From contig BROI01000029.1 in the NCBI GenBank assembly GCA_027923505.1, positions 248,001 through 312,000 of the forward strand: a stretch of 64,000 nucleotides of DNA, read 5' to 3'. This document shows positions 22,771 through 31,939 of this stretch, piece by piece. How positions within the stretch are numbered: the stretch's first letter is position 1; each line of letters starts with the position of its first letter. The notes under the pieces were generated by a model that was given only the letters and a program-made list of their open reading frames with translations, was not told the DNA's origin and did no database searches. Source of the DNA: Mayamaea pseudoterrestris (Eukaryota). Both the position numbers and the translations under genes were made by a program.

Positions 22771-23181
22771 GTCCCAGCAGCTAAAAAAGACTTTTGAGTT
22801 CGGTAATGTTCAATTGGAGTGTTTCGCACTCGGGATGTGGATTGGATGATTGGATCAGGTCGTGTTTCTGCTCACCACAAGAATTGCTGCTCACCAATGA
22901 GTGCGCCGTTTCCAAACTTGAAAATGTGCTACAATTTCGGCAGCTCTGCCTCACAAACTACAACCTTCGATGGAGACTAACACTTGCTTGTAGAATAACT
23001 GACTACTATGTGGCTGCAGGCAATGGAGAATGTTCGCTCCATGGCCGTCGGCAGGCAGAAGCTTATGAATGAGGCCGCTCAGTGCTGCATGTCGTACCGG
23101 TAACTTTGTGAACCGATGAGACGCTTCAAAGATCTTCCGCGAACGACGGCCACACAAAAAGCTATCGCCACATCTTTCACC

Positions 23182-24850
23182 ATGGTTGATGCTGCAGCAA
23201 CGGCTGTCAATTCCGAGGTCGGAGCAATAAGCGATCCTCCATGCCGCGTCTTGGCGCGCAGCAAGACCAAGGTGGAGTTTTTTGTGGTGTCGGAGCGAAA
23301 TGGAGGTGCAGCTGCATCAGCCCCTTCTCCGACGGTCCTTCATGCCGGCCCGACATCATGGCAACAGTACGCTCCAGATGGAAGCTGCGTTTATCTGCAA
23401 ACGCCAAAGGGAGTACTCAAGATTGACTTGACGAATGACAAGCTAGAGCCGAATGGAGACGCCACGCCGTTTCTGCAAAGCACGACTGCAAGCGCCATTC
23501 AGATGATGCATGTTTCGCCTTCGGGATCCTTTTTATTGACTTGGCAACGGCCGACTCCCGATGATGCCAATAATCTAAAACTATGGAGCGCTTTAGATGG
23601 AGCTTTACTAGCGAGTTGGCCACAAAAGCAGCTCCGTCGCGAGTCCTGGCCAACGCTACAATGGACTTATGATGAAAGGTACGCCTTGCTTCTGGTTCAA
23701 AATGAAATTCGCGTTTATCCACAAACAACCATACGAGCAGCTGGCAAGGATTCGAGCAATACACGGTTTACGGACAAAATTCGCGTGCAAAACGTTAGCT
23801 GTCTGAGTGTCGCGCCGCAAGCCAAAAACGGCAGCCCCTACTACTTTACCACCTTTTGTCCGGGAGGCAAAGACAAGCCGGCTCGAGGTGCCTTTCAGGA
23901 ATACATTCCTGGTCAACCTGACTTGCCGGCTCGTTTATCAAAATCATTGTTTCAAGCTGAAGAAATGAAGTCGCATTGGAGTCCTCAAGGTGATGCCGTT
24001 CTGATATCGCTCCAAACATCGGTTGATCATTCGGGTCAGTCCTACTACGGCAGCTCCCAAGTCTTTCTCATGGCAGACTTTGTCACGGATGCTGTAGCAG
24101 TCGAAGGCGTCACTCCGCCCGTCATGGCTGTCGAGTGGATGCCTCACCCGGAACGACCGCCGGCCTTTATTGTTGTCGCAGGCAAAATGCCAGCTTTGGC
24201 GTCCCTGCACCACGGCCGCACGGGCAAGCCAACCTTTTTGTTTGGGCAAGCGCACCGCAACACTGTACACTGGAGTCCGCATGGAAGATTCGTGTTGATC
24301 GGAGGATTTGGGAACTTGGCGGGTGGCATGAGCTTTTGGGACAAGAATAAATGCAAGCTAGTGTCGGGGTGTGCGGCGAATGTGAACAACCAGTTGAGAG
24401 CAGAAGCTGTTGTTGGATGCCATTGGTCTCCCGATAGTCGCATGGTGCTGACTAGTACAACATCACCGAGGATGAATGTTGATAATGGCATGCGACTGTT
24501 CAAGTACAACGGAAGCGAACTGAAAACTCTTCCGTGGGACAATGCTGCGTATCGACCTGATCAGTTGTTGGAAGCCACCTTTGTGCCGGCGAATGTTGAT
24601 GTATATCCGGATCGACCGCAAAGTCCCAACCTAGTGGAGCAAGAGCAACAACAATTGCAGAAGCAACAAGTACCCGGCAAGGCAAACGGACCAGTGATTT
24701 TTACCAAAGCTCTGCCTTCGTCATCTGCAGTAGAAGACTCGAAGCCAGTTGCGCGCTACGTTCCTCCGTCAGCGCGAGGAAGGGCAGGGGGCGGAACTAG
24801 CCTGGCGGAACGCATGCGAAAAGAAAAGGAAGGAAGCCTGCAGCAGGCCA
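23182..24850 (+). CDS. EIF2A: Eukaryotic translation initiation factor 2A, 5' part (beta-propeller), interrupted by retrotransposon
   Basis: SGQSYYG, HRNTVHWSPHGRFVLIGGFGNLAG, TTSPRMNVDNG, YVPPSAR motifs typical of eIF2A. Confidence 0.92.
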
Positions 24851-25151
24851 TCTTTGCCGCAGCTGAAAGCGGAAGGAAAAGACTACACTATATGTTACAG
24901 TCGCCAGCGTGGCGACACCATACGGCTTTGAAAGCTGCGTGGTTGCAGATAAGCCCCTGAGCGTGTTGAAGAGCATCCTTTGATCCTCCTTCGCCCTGCT
25001 CGGAGCCATTCTTTTGAAGAAGGCAAGCTCCTTCCAAGCAGCCCCTCCTGTTGTTGTTGTTGTTGTTGCTACAGTCGCTTGTCCTTTGATTCCTTTAGAG
25101 AGCTGCCTCGAGTGCTGCTTTTGACAAGGAAAGAAGATAGAATTAAGTGCA
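24851..25151 (+). repeat. Split direct repeat A1 (301 bp)
   Basis: Matches 31500-31803 apart from one TGT microsatellite unit (6 vs 7 copies). Confidence 0.95.
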
Positions 25152-25158
25152 TTCCTCC

Positions 25159-27313
25159 ATGGCCGCCGTCAATGGAGCTGACGCCGCTGCCGCAGCCGCC
25201 GCCATTCCTTTTGCCGGGGCCACTCTCCCTACGGTCACCTTCCTTGCCCGTTACAGTCAGGCAAGTAATGATCCTTTGAACGGTGAATACAATGGTTTGA
25301 ACGGTCTCACTCGCACTGCCGATCCTCCTTTAACTGCAGCTGATTGCTTTAAAGGTTTGGTCGACACGCCCTTGGAGACCGCTCCCATCCTTGTTGCTGC
25401 CTTGGTCGAGGCCGACCAGCCTCTGCATGGTTGCATTCACGCCATTGTCGGGGCCCAGCGGTACCTTGCCGTTGCAGGTCGCACCAACCGCTGGGACAAT
25501 CGAGTCATCGGTTTTGGTACGGAGGTTTTCCAAGGCACGGCAGGCCTCGTCGAACTGACGGTGGCAGATTTTCATCTCAGTCCATTGAACGGGCACTTCA
25601 CAAATGTGCCAGCGACATTGGCACAAACAATGGAGCGATTGCAAGGCTTGCCTGCTGGCACTGAGTATTTGCCTCCATTGCAGCCGGTTGACGAAGACGA
25701 TGCGACCATTGTCCAAGGTCGTGCGCGGATGGTTCAGGCCTTGCCCGTGCGGTTCGCACCGCTGGTGATTGGGCAGGGTTTTACGCGGCGCGAATTCTTC
25801 GACCGTTTGGCGCCGGCTATTATTGATGCGGGGCTGGAACATGTCTTGACCAACCTTTGCACTTGGCTAAAGCTATTGGTTACTTGCCGAGCCGCTGATG
25901 GAGTGCCTACTATTCCAGGGAATTGCACGAGCCGCACCGAGCTGGGATGCCGATGTGGCCCGGTTCACCTCGACCAACTTGCGGCGCCTCTTGCCGGACT
26001 TGTTCGCCCAACCCGATCCAAATCAAAGTGCTTTGGTCAACCTTCTGGAGCGCCAAGCTAATGATGCAGCCGAAGTCCGAGCCCGTGAAGAGGCTCGCGC
26101 CGAAGCAGCCAAGGCACCCAAGAAAGTCTCCGACATTTTAACTGCGACACAATTACGGCGCACTAGCATCATGCTACGCATTGCTTCACCAAGTGGCTAT
26201 CCCGAACTGCACCACCTCCTAGCCGCCACGGCTGACAAGGACAAGCGCAAGGTAGTGCAAGACCATCTAGTTGAGGGTGCGGTGGCAGCGGGTAACCAAG
26301 ACTATGCTCCTATTGTGACGCCGCACATTAGCCGACGGCTTCAAGATGGAGACTTTGCAGGCGCCGACAAGGATGATTTTAGTGGAGGCATCAATGTCTT
26401 CATGATGGTACCACCCAATCTGACTGTTCTCCAAGGCTCAAACATGTCAGCTGAAGTCCTCCAAGCGGCGCAGGCGCATGACGACATCCTAAGTGGCGGT
26501 CATGCAATCACCTACCAAGATACTAAGGAGCTCCAGGCTGTTACTTCCAAAGTGGTGCTGCCAACCAACTACTTCCTGGCAGCACGCATGTGCCGGGCCT
26601 ACCTAATCCTCCTCACACAGTACTTTGGGGAAGATCATGAGCTTGTCTGCACATTGGAGCATTGGACCAAGACATTTGAAGCCAACATTCCTACCTATCA
26701 GCACGCCTTGGCTAGCCTTGGTGAGCAGGGACCCTCCCTCATGCTGCGAGCAGTCCAAGTCCGCTTCCACCGTTGGTTCAAGACTATGGAGACTTCTCCC
26801 ACCTACAAGGCCGTCCCGGATCTGGCCAGTGTCATGGAGGACTTGGAAATTGGCAATCTCTCTGTCCTGCCTCCTTTGCCTGCCAAGTATTGCACTCAAC
26901 TAAGCAAGCAACTCAACAAGGCAGCCGACATCCCAGGATCCATCAAGGTTGGTAGCAGTGTCAACAGCAAAGGCACTCATACCACCGCAGCTTCTACTTT
27001 GACTGGTGCAAGCGGCAACAGTCCTTCTACCAAGGCGAATGAGGTGGTCATCAACCTGGATTACAACCCAGCCTTTGAAGCCTTCCAGAAGGACAAGCGC
27101 CAACTCCGCTTGATGAGGAAGAATCCCGAGGACAAGAGTTGGCCCACCAAGGATAGCATCCCAGGACTCGCTACTGCTCCCTGCATGGCTTATCATTTGC
27201 GTGGCAAATGTGACTCATTGTGCAAGCGCAAAGCCGACCACATCCAGCATAGTCAGGCAGCTGATGATGCCTTGTTGGCTTGGGCATTGGAGCATCTTGA
27301 GCCCCGCAATTGA
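25159..27313 (+). CDS. Retrotransposon Gag-like ORF1 with C-terminal Cys/His zinc finger; +1 frameshift near 25918-25922
   Basis: Overlapping ORFs 25147-26061 and 25898-27313 join as ...PTIPG/IARAAPSW...; CMAYHLRGKCDSLCKRKADH finger. Confidence 0.75.
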
Positions 27314-30300
27314 CGGTCCGGCGGGCGGATCCCTATATGTTATAATCCGCTGACGCCTGCAACCTCTGCTGTTCCACCATCCAGAGTCGCAGGTCCAGTT
27401 GTCGAAAATGAAGAAGTAGTTCCAGTAATTAAGTCGCCCAGTAGTAAACGTTTTAAATCTACTGTGTCACCTGTCCTATCTCCTGAACTTGGTAAGCAAG
27501 CTGGCGTGCATGTTGTGCAGAAAGAACCATTGTTACTGCCCACACCACGTCTCTTGCCTACTGCTGCCAGGAATGTAATCAAATTGGCCTCTGTCCCCGG
27601 TCCCACTGCGTCCCTGGTCCAAGTCCAAGCAAGTCAACTCCAAGCAAGTCGTCAAGTTGTCCGCCCTGAGTGTCGTCCAACCTTGGCTCCTAGCACCAAT
27701 CCATCTGTTGCCGTCACACCTACACACCAGGCTGTGGCTTCTCCAGGCCCCCTTGAATCGTCTGTCGCCGTCGCACCTGAGGATGTGGCTTCTCCAGGCC
27801 TTCACACCGCTGATGCCTCTCCAGTGGCTGCTCCAGTCCCATGTACTGGCGCCTCCCCAGTTGTGGTGTCACACCAAGCCATGGCTCCACACTTGGTTGC
27901 CAGCAAGGCTGCTCCTACCATGGCACCACACTTGGCATTCAGCAAGGCTGCTCCACTCTCAATGGAAGCCACTGCTGCACCTGCACAGTCACCTGCCATG
28001 GCAACTGGCTGGGCTCCACACTGGGCCTCTCAGCCAAAGGCACACGACCTGGTCTCCCCAAAGGCATCTGCACCTCCTTGCACTTTGCCTGGCAGTCTTC
28101 CTACATCCAAGTTGCCTTCACACACCAACACCTCATCCTTGCAACTACTTGATGATGAATTGGGGCAGCTGGTTCAGGAGGCATCTGCACGTCTTGCTTT
28201 GTCTCCGGATTGGCGTGCCTTTGTGGAGGCCAGCCGCGGCGCCTCTGACTTACAGCCCAGCGTCAAGGATCTGGATCATCCAGCTGCACATTTGCTACAC
28301 CAATTGGATGCACGTGGCGCACCAGCCATTATGCAGAAAAAGCCTTGGACACTAGCACAAAAGCAAATGGCGCTCAAGAGGGGCCCTCACAAGTCTGCCT
28401 TTGAACACACTGCTTTTCTGCGGGAGGAGTTCACTGACATGATCAAGAAAGGCCACTGGACCGTCCTACCAGCCTCACAGGTCCTTGGAATGGAACAACT
28501 CCGACTCAGTCCACTTGGTGTTGTGCCTCAGCGCGACCGGCGACCTCGGACCATCTCCGACTACAGCTACTTTGGGGTCAATGATGACACTGCTGCAGTT
28601 GCGCCACTGGAGTCCATGCAGTTTGGCCGCACTTTTTATCGTTTGCTGCAACGCATTGCTCGAGCCAACCCCCGCTATGGGCCCGTCCACATGTCCAAGT
28701 TGGATATTGCTGATGGATTTTACCGTGTGCGTTTGCTGCCTGGAGATATCCCCAAGCTTGGTGTCTTGTTTCCTCAGTGTGCTGGTGAGGAGCCTCTGAT
28801 TGCTTTTCCACTCACACTGCCGATGGGTTGGATTCATTCTCCACCCTATTTCTGTGCAGTGACAGAGACCATTTGTGACTTAGCCAATCAAGCCTTCCAG
28901 TGTGGTGCCAAGTCACCACCGCCTCACCGTCTGGAGTTACAAGCTCAAACCTTACCAGCTACCACCACTCCAACACCCCTGCCTGGAAGTGTGCCCGCAC
29001 AAGGCTCTGTCCCACCTATTGTGACTGTGGAGGATATGCCCATCAATGATCCTAGTGTGGCGCCTCTTCCTGCTCCACGCCAGCGCTCTGATATCCTCCA
29101 GCGTCCTGTTGCATACAATGACTTGTATGTGGATGACTTGATTGCTTTAGCCCAAGGCAATCCGGATCGGCTGCTAAGGTTGCAACGTGTTCTCCTGCAC
29201 ACATTTGACCAAGTTCTACGCCCACTGGAGCCCACTGACTTACCTGCTCGTCAAGAACCAGTGTCTGTCAAGAAGTTACTCAAAGGAGATGGTGCTTGGA
29301 CCACTCGCAAGCAAGTCCTGGGTTGGTTGGTTGATACCGTCGCCATGACTGTTGCATTGCCAGCCCATCGCCTGGAACGCCTACGTGAGATCCTAGCTAG
29401 TATCCCTCCTACTCGGCGCCGCATTGCCACCAAGCAGTGGCACAAGTTCTTGGCGAGCTGCGCTCCATGTCCTTGGCCATTCCTGGCAGCCGTGGTCTGT
29501 TCAGTTCCTTGCAAGAGGCCTTTCGCCATCCTGATGGTCACTCTGGTCGTTTGCGGTTGACCCAGGCAGTGCATGACTTTCTGGAAGATTTTCGATGGAT
29601 TGCGGCTGGTCTAGAGACACGACCAACACGCATTGCTGAATTGATTCCTGATGACCCGGCTATTGTGGGCACTACTGATGCATCTGGTCGTGGCGCTGGG
29701 GCCGTGGCCTTTGTCTCCATGCCCACCAATGCCCTACAACCAATCTTGTGGCGTGCCAGGTTCCCTCCTCACATTGAGGCGGACTTGGTGAGTTTTGACA
29801 ACCCACATGGCACTATTACCAATAGTGATTTGGAATTGTTTGGGACGGTTCTCCATCATGATGTTTTGGCACACAATTTTGACATACGTGAGCGCACCAT
29901 TCACACCTCCCATGACAACACTCCGGCTGTCGCTTGGCAGCGCAAGGGCTCTACTACCTCCACTGGCCCAGCAGCATACCTCCTCCGATGCCAGTCCTTG
30001 CATCAACGCACACATCGCTATGTTCCCCTCCATGATTACATTCCTGGTCCAGTGAATGAAATGGCGGACAAGGCCTCCCGTTTGTGGCATTTGTCTGACT
30101 CTGAATTACTCACCTACTTTAACACTCATTACCCACAGCCTCTACCTTGGCAACTGTACCAACCACGACCCGCGATGCTTTCTACCATGATTACCGCACT
30201 GTCCAAGACCAGATCCGTGCCGGAGTCGTTCCTTCAAGAGCCGCCTCCGCGGACAAGCATTGGGCCTCATGGTGTGACTTCTGTCTTGAACACCATCTCG

Positions 30301-30672
30301 ACCCTTTCCTCAAAACCTTGGATGACCCAGTCCCAACTCTCCAAGTCTGGGCAACCCGTTACCGCGATGGCCGACTCTCCGCCAGCGGTCAACCCGTCCG
30401 CGCTGCAACAGTGGCGGACGCCATCCGTGCGGTGGGCCAGACGTTCGCCCGCATGGGGTCCCACGACATTCGACAAGATTCCTGTGGCAAAATTGACTAC
30501 CGGCTGCAGCAACAATTTAAATGCTGGCACCGCGAAGATCCAGCCCCTACTCGCGTCAAACCAATTCCGGTCACCATTGTGCAACACATCCTGGCCCAAG
30601 CCTATTCTGGACCAGGCTCACCTGCCCTGCAAACCTTTGCCGACATCATCACCCTGGGTTTCTTCTTCTTGA
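27314..30672 (+). CDS. Retrotransposon Pol: Pro/Ala-rich linker, reverse transcriptase and RNase H; -1 frameshift near 29443-29447
   Basis: LSPLGVVPQRDRRPRTISDYS, KLDIADGFYRV, LPMGWIHSPPYFC, YVDD; RNase H TTDASG, NSDLEL, DNTPAVAW, ADKASR; frame open from 27314. Confidence 0.92.
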
Positions 30673-31295
30673 TGCGCCCTGGTGAGTACACTGGCACCCA
30701 CGGTGGCAACACCCCACCACTACGCCTAGGTGCAGTCCAACTCTGTCTGGGTTCCCGCCGTCTTGATCTCTTTGCTGCACCAGCTGCAGATTTGTTGGCG
30801 GCTTCCCAGGTGTCGTTCACATTTGATAATCAGAAAAATGGTGTCCGCGGTGAAGTCATTAGCCAAGGCCGCACTGGCTTGTTCCATTGCTGTCCGGTGC
30901 TTGCTGCTGCTCGGCGCATTCTTTATTTGCGTGAGCATGGTGCTACTGCCCACACACCGCTTGCAACCTACTGGTGTGCTAATCGTCCTCTTGGCGTCAA
31001 GAATGGGGAGATTACGCGCACCCTTCGCAATGCTGTCATCGCACTTGGTCCTACCCTGGGCTTAGACCCCTCCGACATTGAGGCTCGCTCCCTGCGCGCT
31101 GGTGGTGCTATGGCTCTCCTCAATGGCGGCTGCGATGACAATATTATAAAATTGATGGGCCGCTGGCGTTCTGACGCAATGCTACGCTACCTGCATGGCA
31201 CTGCTGCTCACACCACCGGCTACGCTGCTCGCATGGTCCAAGGTGGCACCTACACCCTGGTCCCTGGCACCTTTGTCCCGCAGCAGCCCATCTAA
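30123..31295 (+). CDS. Retrotransposon tyrosine recombinase (overlaps the pol 3' end, no 5' ATG)
   Basis: FFFLMRPGEY (R), NQKNG (K), CCPV, RSLRAGGA (R), GRWRSDAMLRYL (W, catalytic Y). Confidence 0.92.
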   Translation, partial: HSLPTASTLATVPTTTRDAFYHDYRTVQDQIRAGVVPSRAASADKHWASWCDFCLEHHLDPFLKTLDDPVPTLQVWATRYRDGRLSASGQPVRAATVADAIRAVGQTFARMGSHDIRQDSCGKIDYRLQQQFKCWHREDPAPTRVKPIPVTIVQHILAQAYSGPGSPALQTFADIITLGFFFLMRPGEYTGTHGGNTPPLRLGAVQLCLGSRRLDLFAAPAADLLAASQVSFTFDNQKNGVRGEVISQGRTGLFHCCPVLAAARRILYLREHGATAHTPLATYWCANRPLGVKNGEITRTLRNAVIALGPTLGLDPSDIEARSLRAGGAMALLNGGCDDNIIKLMGRWRSDAMLRYLHGTAAHTTGYAARMVQGGTYTLVPGTFVPQQPI

Positions 31296-31381
31296 CCTAC
31301 CCACCACACTCGCTTCGCTCGTTTCCCACCCGTCTCTTTGGGTGTCCTTTGTCCTCCAAGATGAAAAGTGGGTGGCAAGGA

Positions 31382-31499
31382 GGCGCACGCCTTGGGGCGG
31401 CGAGGAGGCAAATTAAGTAAAATGCCTTACTCTCCACCCAACTGTGTGCCATCCTTAAAACCCTGTAGCTGGAAGTAGTGGCTAAGACGGGGAAACCCG
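31382..31499 (+). repeat. Split direct repeat B1 (118 bp)
   Basis: Identical to 31822-31939; abuts A2. Confidence 0.95.
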
Positions 31500-31803
31500 T
31501 CTTTGCCGCAGCTGAAAGCGGAAGGAAAAGACTACACTATATGTTACAGTCGCCAGCGTGGCGACACCATACGGCTTTGAAAGCTGCGTGGTTGCAGATA
31601 AGCCCCTGAGCGTGTTGAAGAGCATCCTTTGATCCTCCTTCGCCCTGCTCGGAGCCATTCTTTTGAAGAAGGCAAGCTCCTTCCAAGCAGCCCCTCCTGT
31701 TGTTGTTGTTGTTGTTGTTGCTACAGTCGCTTGTCCTTTGATTCCTTTAGAGAGCTGCCTCGAGTGCTGCTTTTGACAAGGAAAGAAGATAGAATTAAGT
31801 GCA
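31500..31803 (+). repeat. Split direct repeat A2 (304 bp)
   Basis: Copy of 24851-25151 with one extra TGT. Confidence 0.95.
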
Positions 31804-31821
31804 CCCACCCTCCCGTCCCTC

Positions 31822-31939
31822 GGCGCACGCCTTGGGGCGGCGAGGAGGCAAATTAAGTAAAATGCCTTACTCTCCACCCAACTGTGTGCCATCCTTAAAA
31901 CCCTGTAGCTGGAAGTAGTGGCTAAGACGGGGAAACCCG
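31822..31939 (+). repeat. Split direct repeat B2 (118 bp), right end of element
   Basis: Identical to 31382-31499; separated from A2 by an 18-bp C-rich spacer. Confidence 0.95.

Follow-up and report, generated by a model that had tools for sequence, protein, structure and literature searches.

Gammaretroviruses are the classical case of a Gag-Pol fusion made by readthrough of the gag stop codon, and the same has been suggested for certain long terminal repeat (LTR) retrotransposons. In murine leukaemia virus (MuLV) and the gammaretroviruses as a group, an in-frame stop separates gag from pol, an RNA structure lies a few bases downstream, and much Gag is made together with little Gag-Pol. In alphaviruses, tobraviruses and coltiviruses the readthrough signals have a UGA-C or UGA-CGG context or a 3' stem-loop, and the type II readthrough context is given as UGA-CGG or UGA-CUA. 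Here we describe a junction that resembles both in a tyrosine-recombinase retrotransposon of the diatom Mayamaea pseudoterrestris. The element, 7.1 kb long and equipped with split direct repeats, occupies positions 24848-31939 of a stretch of 64,000 nucleotides (assembly GCA_027923505.1, contig BROI01000029.1, positions 248,001 to 312,000 of the forward strand), which we call the window and by which all positions are numbered. Its gag and pol lie in one frame, separated by a UGA that is followed by CGG and, less than 10 nt from the stop, by a potential stem-loop, and the comparison with related elements suggests that its Pol is probably made by readthrough of this stop.

The repeat layout A1-[ORFs]-B1A2B2, in which ORFs are the open reading frames, has been described for Ngaro (PMC8547959), and split direct repeats are given as the layout of Ngaro, PAT and VIPER (PMC6681497). 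The window element has the same repeat order and, like Ngaro/PAT-like elements, carries gag, reverse transcriptase (RT)/RNase H and recombinase in that order, with no protease or DDE integrase found; it is a diatom tyrosine-recombinase retrotransposon of the DIRS order, Ngaro/PAT-like. Ngaro ORFs are said not to overlap as a rule (PMC3266345), whereas pol and the recombinase ORF of the window overlap by 550 nt. Tca2 (pCal), a Ty1/copia element of Candida albicans, has gag and pol separated by a stop behind which a pseudoknot is predicted, and suppression of that stop was proposed, according to a review (PMC7175516). The window element shares with Tca2 the stop between gag and pol and a predicted structure downstream of it, but Tca2 is an LTR element with an integrase.

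Little is known of how DIRS-order elements balance structural protein against enzyme, and the papers that we consulted speak only of separate or overlapping ORFs. We found no description of an in-frame gag-pol stop or of readthrough in the DIRS order in the full-text literature, whose coverage excludes the founding papers and a 2003 survey of recoding signals, either of which may have priority. Nor did the accessible text of the papers on Ngaro, VIPER/TATE, DIRS1-like and ALOG-DIRS elements contain a mention of gag-pol readthrough. The arrangement described below would be a known strategy in a new variant, for which no earlier report from this order was found.

RESULTS

Gag and pol share one frame across a conserved stop codon

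The gag frame of the window terminates with AAT TGA (27311-27313), and the codons that follow (CGG TCC GGC) continue in the same frame, which is open for 748 codons (27314-29560) and includes the YVDD motif of the RT. No ATG occurs in this frame until 27881, 189 codons after the TGA. The in-frame stop, the open frame behind it and the late ATG had been pointed out in an earlier note on this DNA, and translation bears them out. The same note had drawn a hairpin behind the stop, and folding of 27320-27357 alone returns the pairing as first described, at -14.1 kcal/mol. The helix begins at the seventh base after the stop, leaving a spacer of 6 nt (27314-27319). An outer helix GGCG/CGCC joins 27320-27323 to 27354-27357, an inner helix GGCGGAU/AUCCGCU joins 27324-27330 to 27345-27351, and an apical UAUA/UAUA joins 27334-27337 to 27341-27344.

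An RT profile run over metagenome contigs found 403 relatives, of which the best 80, with 44-63% identity to the window RT, were kept as loci. At each locus the frame of the gag end, scored with a hidden Markov model (HMM) from 22 full gag ORFs, was compared with that of the RT; the gag end is absent from the contig in 12 of the 80, which leaves 68 assessable loci. Gag and RT lie in one frame in 66 of these 68, where about one third would be expected under free frames. Exactly one stop separates them in 59 loci and two stops in seven, and in none of the 68 are gag and pol fused without a stop. What the earlier note had read from a single copy, a shared frame interrupted by a stop, is hence the rule among the relatives, and a sense codon in its place occurs in none of them. 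The two exceptions, L067 and L069, are near-identical to each other. At both (L067:3594 and L069:367) the gag end, a TAG and the hairpin (40.1 bits) are present and the RT follows in another frame, with several in-frame TGAs between; since stop and hairpin stand directly after gag, a later frame break in the linker, shared by the two, is probable.

Among 56 distinct junctions the stop is TGA in 41, TAG in 14 and TAA in one, and its identity changes at least six times on the RT tree. The tree is a quick maximum-likelihood tree of 53 rows that holds solely this clade, three junctions with an RT piece shorter than 250 residues having been left out. A stop is present whichever codon serves, which indicates that it is the stop as such that is kept at the gag-pol boundary. 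The base after TGA varies (C 13, A 11, T 9, G 8), and TGA-CGG is found in 7 of the 56 junctions. TAG is followed by G in all 14 cases, as it is in MuLV.

Proteins gave a similar picture. Intact gag ORFs of the relatives have 669-778 codons, and the window gag would have about 720 without an extra base that interrupts it (see below). The C-terminal part of gag, searched against 1.84 billion representative proteins, yielded 406 matches at an expectation value (E) of at most 0.001. Among the best 150 of these 406 there is no gag-pol fusion, none being longer than 893 residues, and the full-length gag relatives among them terminate within a few residues of the gag end. A scan of viral contigs with the RT profile gave 11 pattern matches and no relatives. 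Some of the metagenomic loci contain head-to-tail tandem copies: in L007 (stops at 2556 and 8322), L002, L059 and L004 either gag or the stop with its hairpin appears again about 5.8 kb downstream.

The stop in contigs from sequencing runs

The window copy carries two single-base breaks. In the relatives the N-terminal approximately 250 residues of gag match 25222-25917, and the C-terminal parts match 25979-27253 in another frame; one extra G in a GGG run at 25918 breaks the gag of the window. One G is missing after 29451, which breaks the RT thumb, and a protein with 99% identity (P0003) reads across this position unbroken (KFLGELRSM). Both breaks fall in runs of G and may thus be either true mutations or assembly errors.

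We compared Logan contigs of four public runs with 25800-29700. High-depth contigs that cross 27311-27313 are unchanged there in three runs, X1 (depth 296), X5 (561) and X6 (3.7), and depart from the window sequence in three respects: they have C>A at 27245, are one base shorter at 25918 and contain an additional G behind 29451. This comparison of the stop comprises the high-depth contigs, a short diverged contig of X5 (27279-27317, five differences) standing outside it. In these sister sequences, which the earlier note had proposed to inspect for a sense codon, the TGA is retained, and because it is kept in contigs that lack both breaks it is not a private mutation of the window copy. The support is modest, as the runs come from two studies and may include the source sample of the window itself.

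A hairpin at a fixed distance from the stop covaries among the relatives

By eye and with a simple finder, a 3-bp helix in which GGC closes on GCC was seen exactly 6 nt after the stop in 52 of the 56 junctions. Beyond this outer helix, after a bulge of 0-3 nt, an inner helix of 4 bp or more closes a loop of 3-77 nt; the bulge on the 3' side measures 0-5 nt. Under a stricter rule 40 of the 56 junctions have the hairpin at an offset of 6 nt, compared with 32 at 5 nt, 34 at 7 nt and 3-21 at the other offsets. Stability is enriched at the same place in a bias-free check: of the 56 fixed 50-nt segments taken from +7, 29 rank within the most stable 10% of their own loci (5.6 expected) and 18 within the most stable twentieth, the site in the window lying at the 9th percentile.

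A covariance model (R1) was built from a seed of 14 relatives, with the window left out, and run over both strands of 450 kb. All 28 of its matches at E of at most 1 begin at a gag-ending stop, and its sole match in the 64-kb window is 27311-27363 (29.3 bits, E 6.6e-4). A second model made from these matches (R2) found 36 sites, all at gag-ending stops and none elsewhere. In the R2 alignment 96.7% of the cells are paired, as against 81.8% in shuffles (reached by 0 of 500), and 38 cells are double changes, as against 12.2 (0 of 500). All six inner pairs change on both sides, and at each of the four innermost-scored pairs GC to AU swaps occur in 2-10 of 29 distinct rows. When the partner is slid by 1-3 columns, pairing drops to 24-58%. 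RNAalifold, which predicts independently, returns the same two helices. The peptides encoded by the arms vary by lineage (G-R-R/A-A-E, G-W-R/P-L-K and G-K-R/S-L-R), which argues that the pairing is kept and not the peptide.

The putative signal that is conserved here is a stop, a 6-nt spacer and a two-helix hairpin, not UGA-CGG. The earlier note had proposed UGA-CGG together with a stem-loop; the stem-loop holds and shows the covariation that the note had suggested looking for, and the CGG falls away, given its scarcity among the junctions. Against Rfam the junction had no match at E of at most 10, nor did any part of the window reach gathering score. At four loci (L003:97-160, L033:2026-2090, L023:2248-2310 and L010:3523-3585) the spacer can pair with bases just 3' of the hairpin, which extends the stem down to the stop and in L033 includes the stop codon itself; this pairing is absent in the window.

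Coding-type substitution behind the stop

A start codon of pol's own was sought in the relatives. The first in-frame ATG after the stop lies anywhere from +5 to +234 codons, a scatter which shows that no start codon is conserved. The distance from the stop nearest the RT to the RT match is 72-418 codons, values of 1-2 codons that stem from a second TGA in the clade of L001 (see below) being excluded.

Ten pairs of loci were compared in the ATG-less stretch, from which the initial 20 codons were omitted on account of the hairpin; an eleventh pair had no usable codons. Differences at codon positions 1, 2 and 3 number 88, 51 and 132 over the ten pairs, which are not ten independent tests since some loci enter more than one pair. 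The ratio of nonsynonymous to synonymous change (dN/dS) is 0.14 (100 codons), 0.27 (97 codons) and 0.28 (84 codons) in the three longest comparisons, for which shifted frames give roughly 0.8-4.5, and 0.4-0.95 in the weaker pairs. Judged by these substitutions, the ATG-less stretch evolves as coding sequence in the pol frame.

Pol, the recombinase and a second in-frame TGA

At the level of sequence profiles the enzymes of the element are remote from described families. RVT_1 meets the window RT at E 0.036, which falls short of the cut-off, and a profile of 33 relatives reaches HIV-1 RT at E 0.0077 at best; a precomputed PF00078 assignment is carried by 15 of the 120 relatives listed (819 in total). 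The RNase H-like part is assigned provisionally, from motifs that we recognised ourselves without a match by any tool. The pol alignment is conserved to a tail motif W-x-TP-x-V-x-WARR-x-P-x-WGP; the C-terminal part corresponds to no Pfam family, and its tail of about 190 residues looks too short for a methyltransferase domain, which Ngaro-like elements lack behind RNase H. Pfam at E 0.01 gave nothing on the four ORFs of the element, and no integrase or protease family appeared in any of them in the Pfam scans.

A second in-frame TGA was noted in a clade of five loci (L001:2668, L011:4067, L044:1912, L050:1240 and L035:22), four of which are in the RT tree and group there with a Shimodaira-Hasegawa-like approximate likelihood ratio test (SH-aLRT) value of 94. 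It stands in the context TTG TGA C inside the conserved Pol motif HPAAxLLxxL-*-RxGAPV, at a position homologous to about 28445-28450 of the window, which has Asp there; other relatives have D, H, R or K. No conserved hairpin is evident after it. Because this TGA is kept across diverged members inside a Pol motif, it must be decoded if a whole Pol is to be made, and we regard it as a candidate second readthrough site.

The recombinase, too, is weakly recognised by sequence: Phage_integrase matches the window product at E 0.17 and 5 of 27 members, at best with E 0.0011, and a sequence search of the PDB with it gave no match. A structural model of the product of 30123-31295 (predicted local distance difference test, pLDDT, 82.5) has Cre as its best fold match (E 4.7e-7, template modelling score 0.57-0.68), followed by XerA and the Tn1549 and lambda integrases. 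Residues R185, K238, R322, R325 and W348 are invariant, and Y356 is present in at least 90% of the rows. By its predicted fold the product is clearly a tyrosine recombinase.

Relative to the pol tail, the recombinase ORF is in frame -1 in all 62 rows (61 loci and the window), with an overlap of 355-1198 nt and conserved residues in both frames. The ATG of the ORF itself often comes over 100 codons after the homology has begun (+110 in the window). An ordinary -1 frameshift as the route to the recombinase was considered and is unsupported, as a canonical X_XXY_YYZ heptamer near the ORF start occurs in one locus alone. Conservation of the first residues of the ORF was likewise set aside, being a by-product of the conserved pol motif in the other frame. 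The pol motif (Y/F)-P-Q lies at the start of the ORF, and all 47 distinct sequences with this motif use CAG for its Gln; two more sequences without the Pro codon also have CAG at that Gln. Pol Gln codons further upstream are CAA in 479 and CAG in 311 cases. The CAG is preceded by a pyrimidine-rich run and, by about 25 nt, by a CTCAC (or ACTCAC) or CTAAC box (30108-30138 in the window). The CAG of the window (30136-30138) looks like a 3' splice site and may be the acceptor for a subgenomic mRNA of the recombinase.

The element and its surroundings

The features of the element are collected in Table 1. No second copy of the retrotransposon was found within the window. The ORF directly upstream (23104-24957) encodes the translation initiation factor eIF2A (PF08662, E 1.2e-49). 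The start of repeat A1 falls inside the final approximately 110 nt of this open frame, which places the element at or in the 3' end of the gene. The nearest database protein (99% identity) is annotated as a hypothetical protein of M. pseudoterrestris. Among the 819 relatives another comes from Cylindrotheca closterium, the remainder from metagenomes and run assemblies.

Table 1. Features of the retrotransposon, in window coordinates
Feature	Position	Strand	Remarks
Split direct repeat A1, 5' end of element	24848-25151	+	98.7% identity to 31497-31803 over 307 columns
gag, N-terminal part	25159-25917	+	first ATG 25159; frame differs from the rest of gag in the window copy
gag, C-terminal part	25918-27310	+	ends in a weak CCCH-like motif (zf-CCCH_12, E 0.035, short of the cut-off)
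In-frame TGA between gag and pol, candidate leaky stop	27311-27313	+	homologous stop in 66 of 68 assessable relatives
Pro/Ser/Ala-rich linker, start of pol	27314-28303	+	ATG-free until 27881
6-nt spacer CGGTCC	27314-27319	+	length kept across relatives, sequence not
Hairpin	27320-27357	+	folding, covariance model and covariation
pol, N-terminal conserved block and reverse transcriptase (YVDD)	28304-29451	+	frame broken after 29451 in the window copy
pol, remainder: RT thumb, RNase H-like part, conserved C-terminal tail	29452-30672	+	continuous with the RT in P0003
Tyrosine recombinase ORF	30123-31295	+	-1 frame relative to the pol tail, 550-nt overlap
Split direct repeat B1	31382-31499	+	100% identity to 31822-31939
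Split direct repeat A2	31497-31803	+	pairs with A1 (98.7%)
Split direct repeat B2, 3' end of element	31822-31939	+	pairs with B1 (100%)

DISCUSSION

In this study we find that programmed readthrough of the gag stop, giving a Gag-Pol fusion, is the best reading of the junction, and we hold it to be likely. The conserved stop, the shared frame and the covarying hairpin support the fusion that the earlier note had proposed. What the sequences show is the in-frame stop, its retention through changes of identity, the want of a conserved start codon, coding-type evolution just behind the stop and a covarying hairpin at fixed spacing; that the stop is read through, that the hairpin stimulates this, how efficiently and with which residue inserted are matters of inference. 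In such a mechanism, ribosomes would translate gag, which has about 720 codons in intact copies, and in most cases stop at the UGA and release Gag. With the stop in the A site, a hairpin that begins 6 nt further on would sit at the mRNA entry of the ribosome, a placement that rests on the known geometry of the ribosome and on viral signals. In a minority of passes a near-cognate tRNA would decode the stop, and translation would go on in the same frame through the Pro/Ser-rich linker into RT and RNase H. The product would be a Gag-Pol fusion at a low, fixed ratio to Gag, by the same logic as in MuLV.

Several observations weigh against this reading. The loci are related, so that their counts are not independent events, and the window copy with its two frame breaks may itself be dead. 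At its junction the fold of a 71-nt segment has a z score of -0.69 (46 of 200 shuffles equally good), the 38-nt hairpin has a z score of -1.84 (10 of 200), and the minimum free energy structure of 90 nt chooses another pairing. The hairpin of the window by itself is hence not above chance; the window alone decides nothing, and the significance comes from the relatives. Among these, 16 of the 56 junctions fail the strict hairpin rule, which moreover is permissive (26.7% of other GGY sites pass, 2207/8262). The three outer pairs GGC/GCC are invariant and show no covariation, and could reflect codons for Gly and Ala/Pro. The covariance models reach 36 sites and miss a clade with long loops (L056, L068, L070 and kin, with loops of 43-65 nt), and the alignments used for the pair counts were fitted to the model, whose seed was chosen with our own hairpin finder. 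In addition, readthrough in Tca2 was not confirmed by a reporter assay, according to the review (PMC7175516). It is because that prediction failed in the reporter that we do not place our confidence any higher.

Other explanations have to be weighed against readthrough. The two single-base breaks of the window copy would suit the idea that the TGA is a nonsense mutation in a decaying element whose gag and pol were once a single open frame; however, high-depth contigs of three runs, free of those breaks, carry the TGA too, 66 of 68 assessable relatives have a stop at the corresponding position with none fused, and there is no protein of fusion length among the best 150 of the 406 gag relatives, and we consider this idea extremely unlikely. 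Pol might also be translated separately, with ribosomes initiating internally or at a non-AUG codon, or using an mRNA that is spliced or subgenomic, in which case the hairpin might serve packaging, dimerisation or pausing. Spliced mRNAs are plausible in this family, as the recombinase ORF may be reached by splicing, and weak promoter activity has been reported at the Tca2 junction, where the reporter did not bear out readthrough (PMC7175516). Left without explanation under separate translation are the frame shared by gag and pol in 66 of 68 loci and the retention of exactly one stop through at least six changes of its identity. No ATG is conserved, coding constraint begins right after the hairpin, and the hairpin keeps a fixed distance of 6 nt from the stop, all of which speaks against it as well; we regard separate translation as unlikely, while leaving it some chance of being right.

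It might further be that readthrough is real but driven by the context of the stop or by host factors, and that the conservation after the stop is that of a peptide motif x-x-G-[RKWG]-R. The GGC at +7 to +9 is invariant and always encodes Gly, the residues that follow are mostly basic, the outer helix does not covary, and every TAG is followed by G. Against this stand the inner pairs, in all six of which both partners vary; per pair, 2-10 of 29 rows have exchanged GC for AU, and these exchanges alter the residues encoded by both arms. The enrichment of stability at precisely this place speaks against it too. This reading is in our view quite improbable. For a joining of the two frames by termination and reinitiation, by ribosome bypass or by RNA editing of the stop there is nothing specific, although a same-frame layout without a start codon would fit each of these as it fits readthrough. 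Known reinitiation sites have an AUG near the stop, and here none is near it; the occurrence of all three stop codons argues against one editing chemistry. We give such recoding a very low probability.

If Gag-Pol is made by readthrough here, the signal would resemble that of MuLV in its general design and differ from it in several respects. The diatom junction is a two-helix hairpin for which no pseudoknot was shown, without a systematic pseudoknot search, and its spacer is 6 nt of free sequence, whereas that of MuLV is a purine-rich 8 nt. The diatom family uses mostly UGA (41 of 56), has no protease after the stop and integrates by a tyrosine recombinase. Compared with the viral UGA-C and UGA-CGG signals, it is the spacing and the hairpin that are conserved in the diatom family and not UGA-CGG (7 of 56), so that the type II criterion of a conserved CGG or CUA after UGA does not describe it.

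A wider hypothesis, which we judge about evenly balanced between right and wrong, is that an old clade of diatom tyrosine-recombinase retrotransposons, with RT identities down to 44%, makes its Gag-Pol by structure-stimulated readthrough. The signal would belong to a previously undescribed class, in which any of the stop codons is followed, after a spacer of 6 nt, by a two-helix hairpin whose internal loop is asymmetric. A subclade would have a second, obligatory UGA in a conserved Pol motif, and the recombinase would perhaps come from a spliced mRNA.

There are practical consequences as well. Gene callers divide the element at its stop and assign pol an arbitrary internal ATG as its start; a database protein of 930 residues that begins at the position of 27881 illustrates this, and annotation of such elements calls for caution. 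The junction also offers a compact candidate readthrough cassette of about 50 nt for UGA, UAG or UAA, which might be used in studies of termination fidelity in diatoms and for tunable expression.

In conclusion, a conserved in-frame stop with a covarying hairpin provides a concrete and testable mechanism for elements of the DIRS order. If it is true, the Gag-Pol readthrough strategy of retroviruses would extend to elements that integrate by tyrosine recombinase, the DIRS order would have a layered control of expression like that of retroviruses, and diatoms would gain their first defined recoding element.

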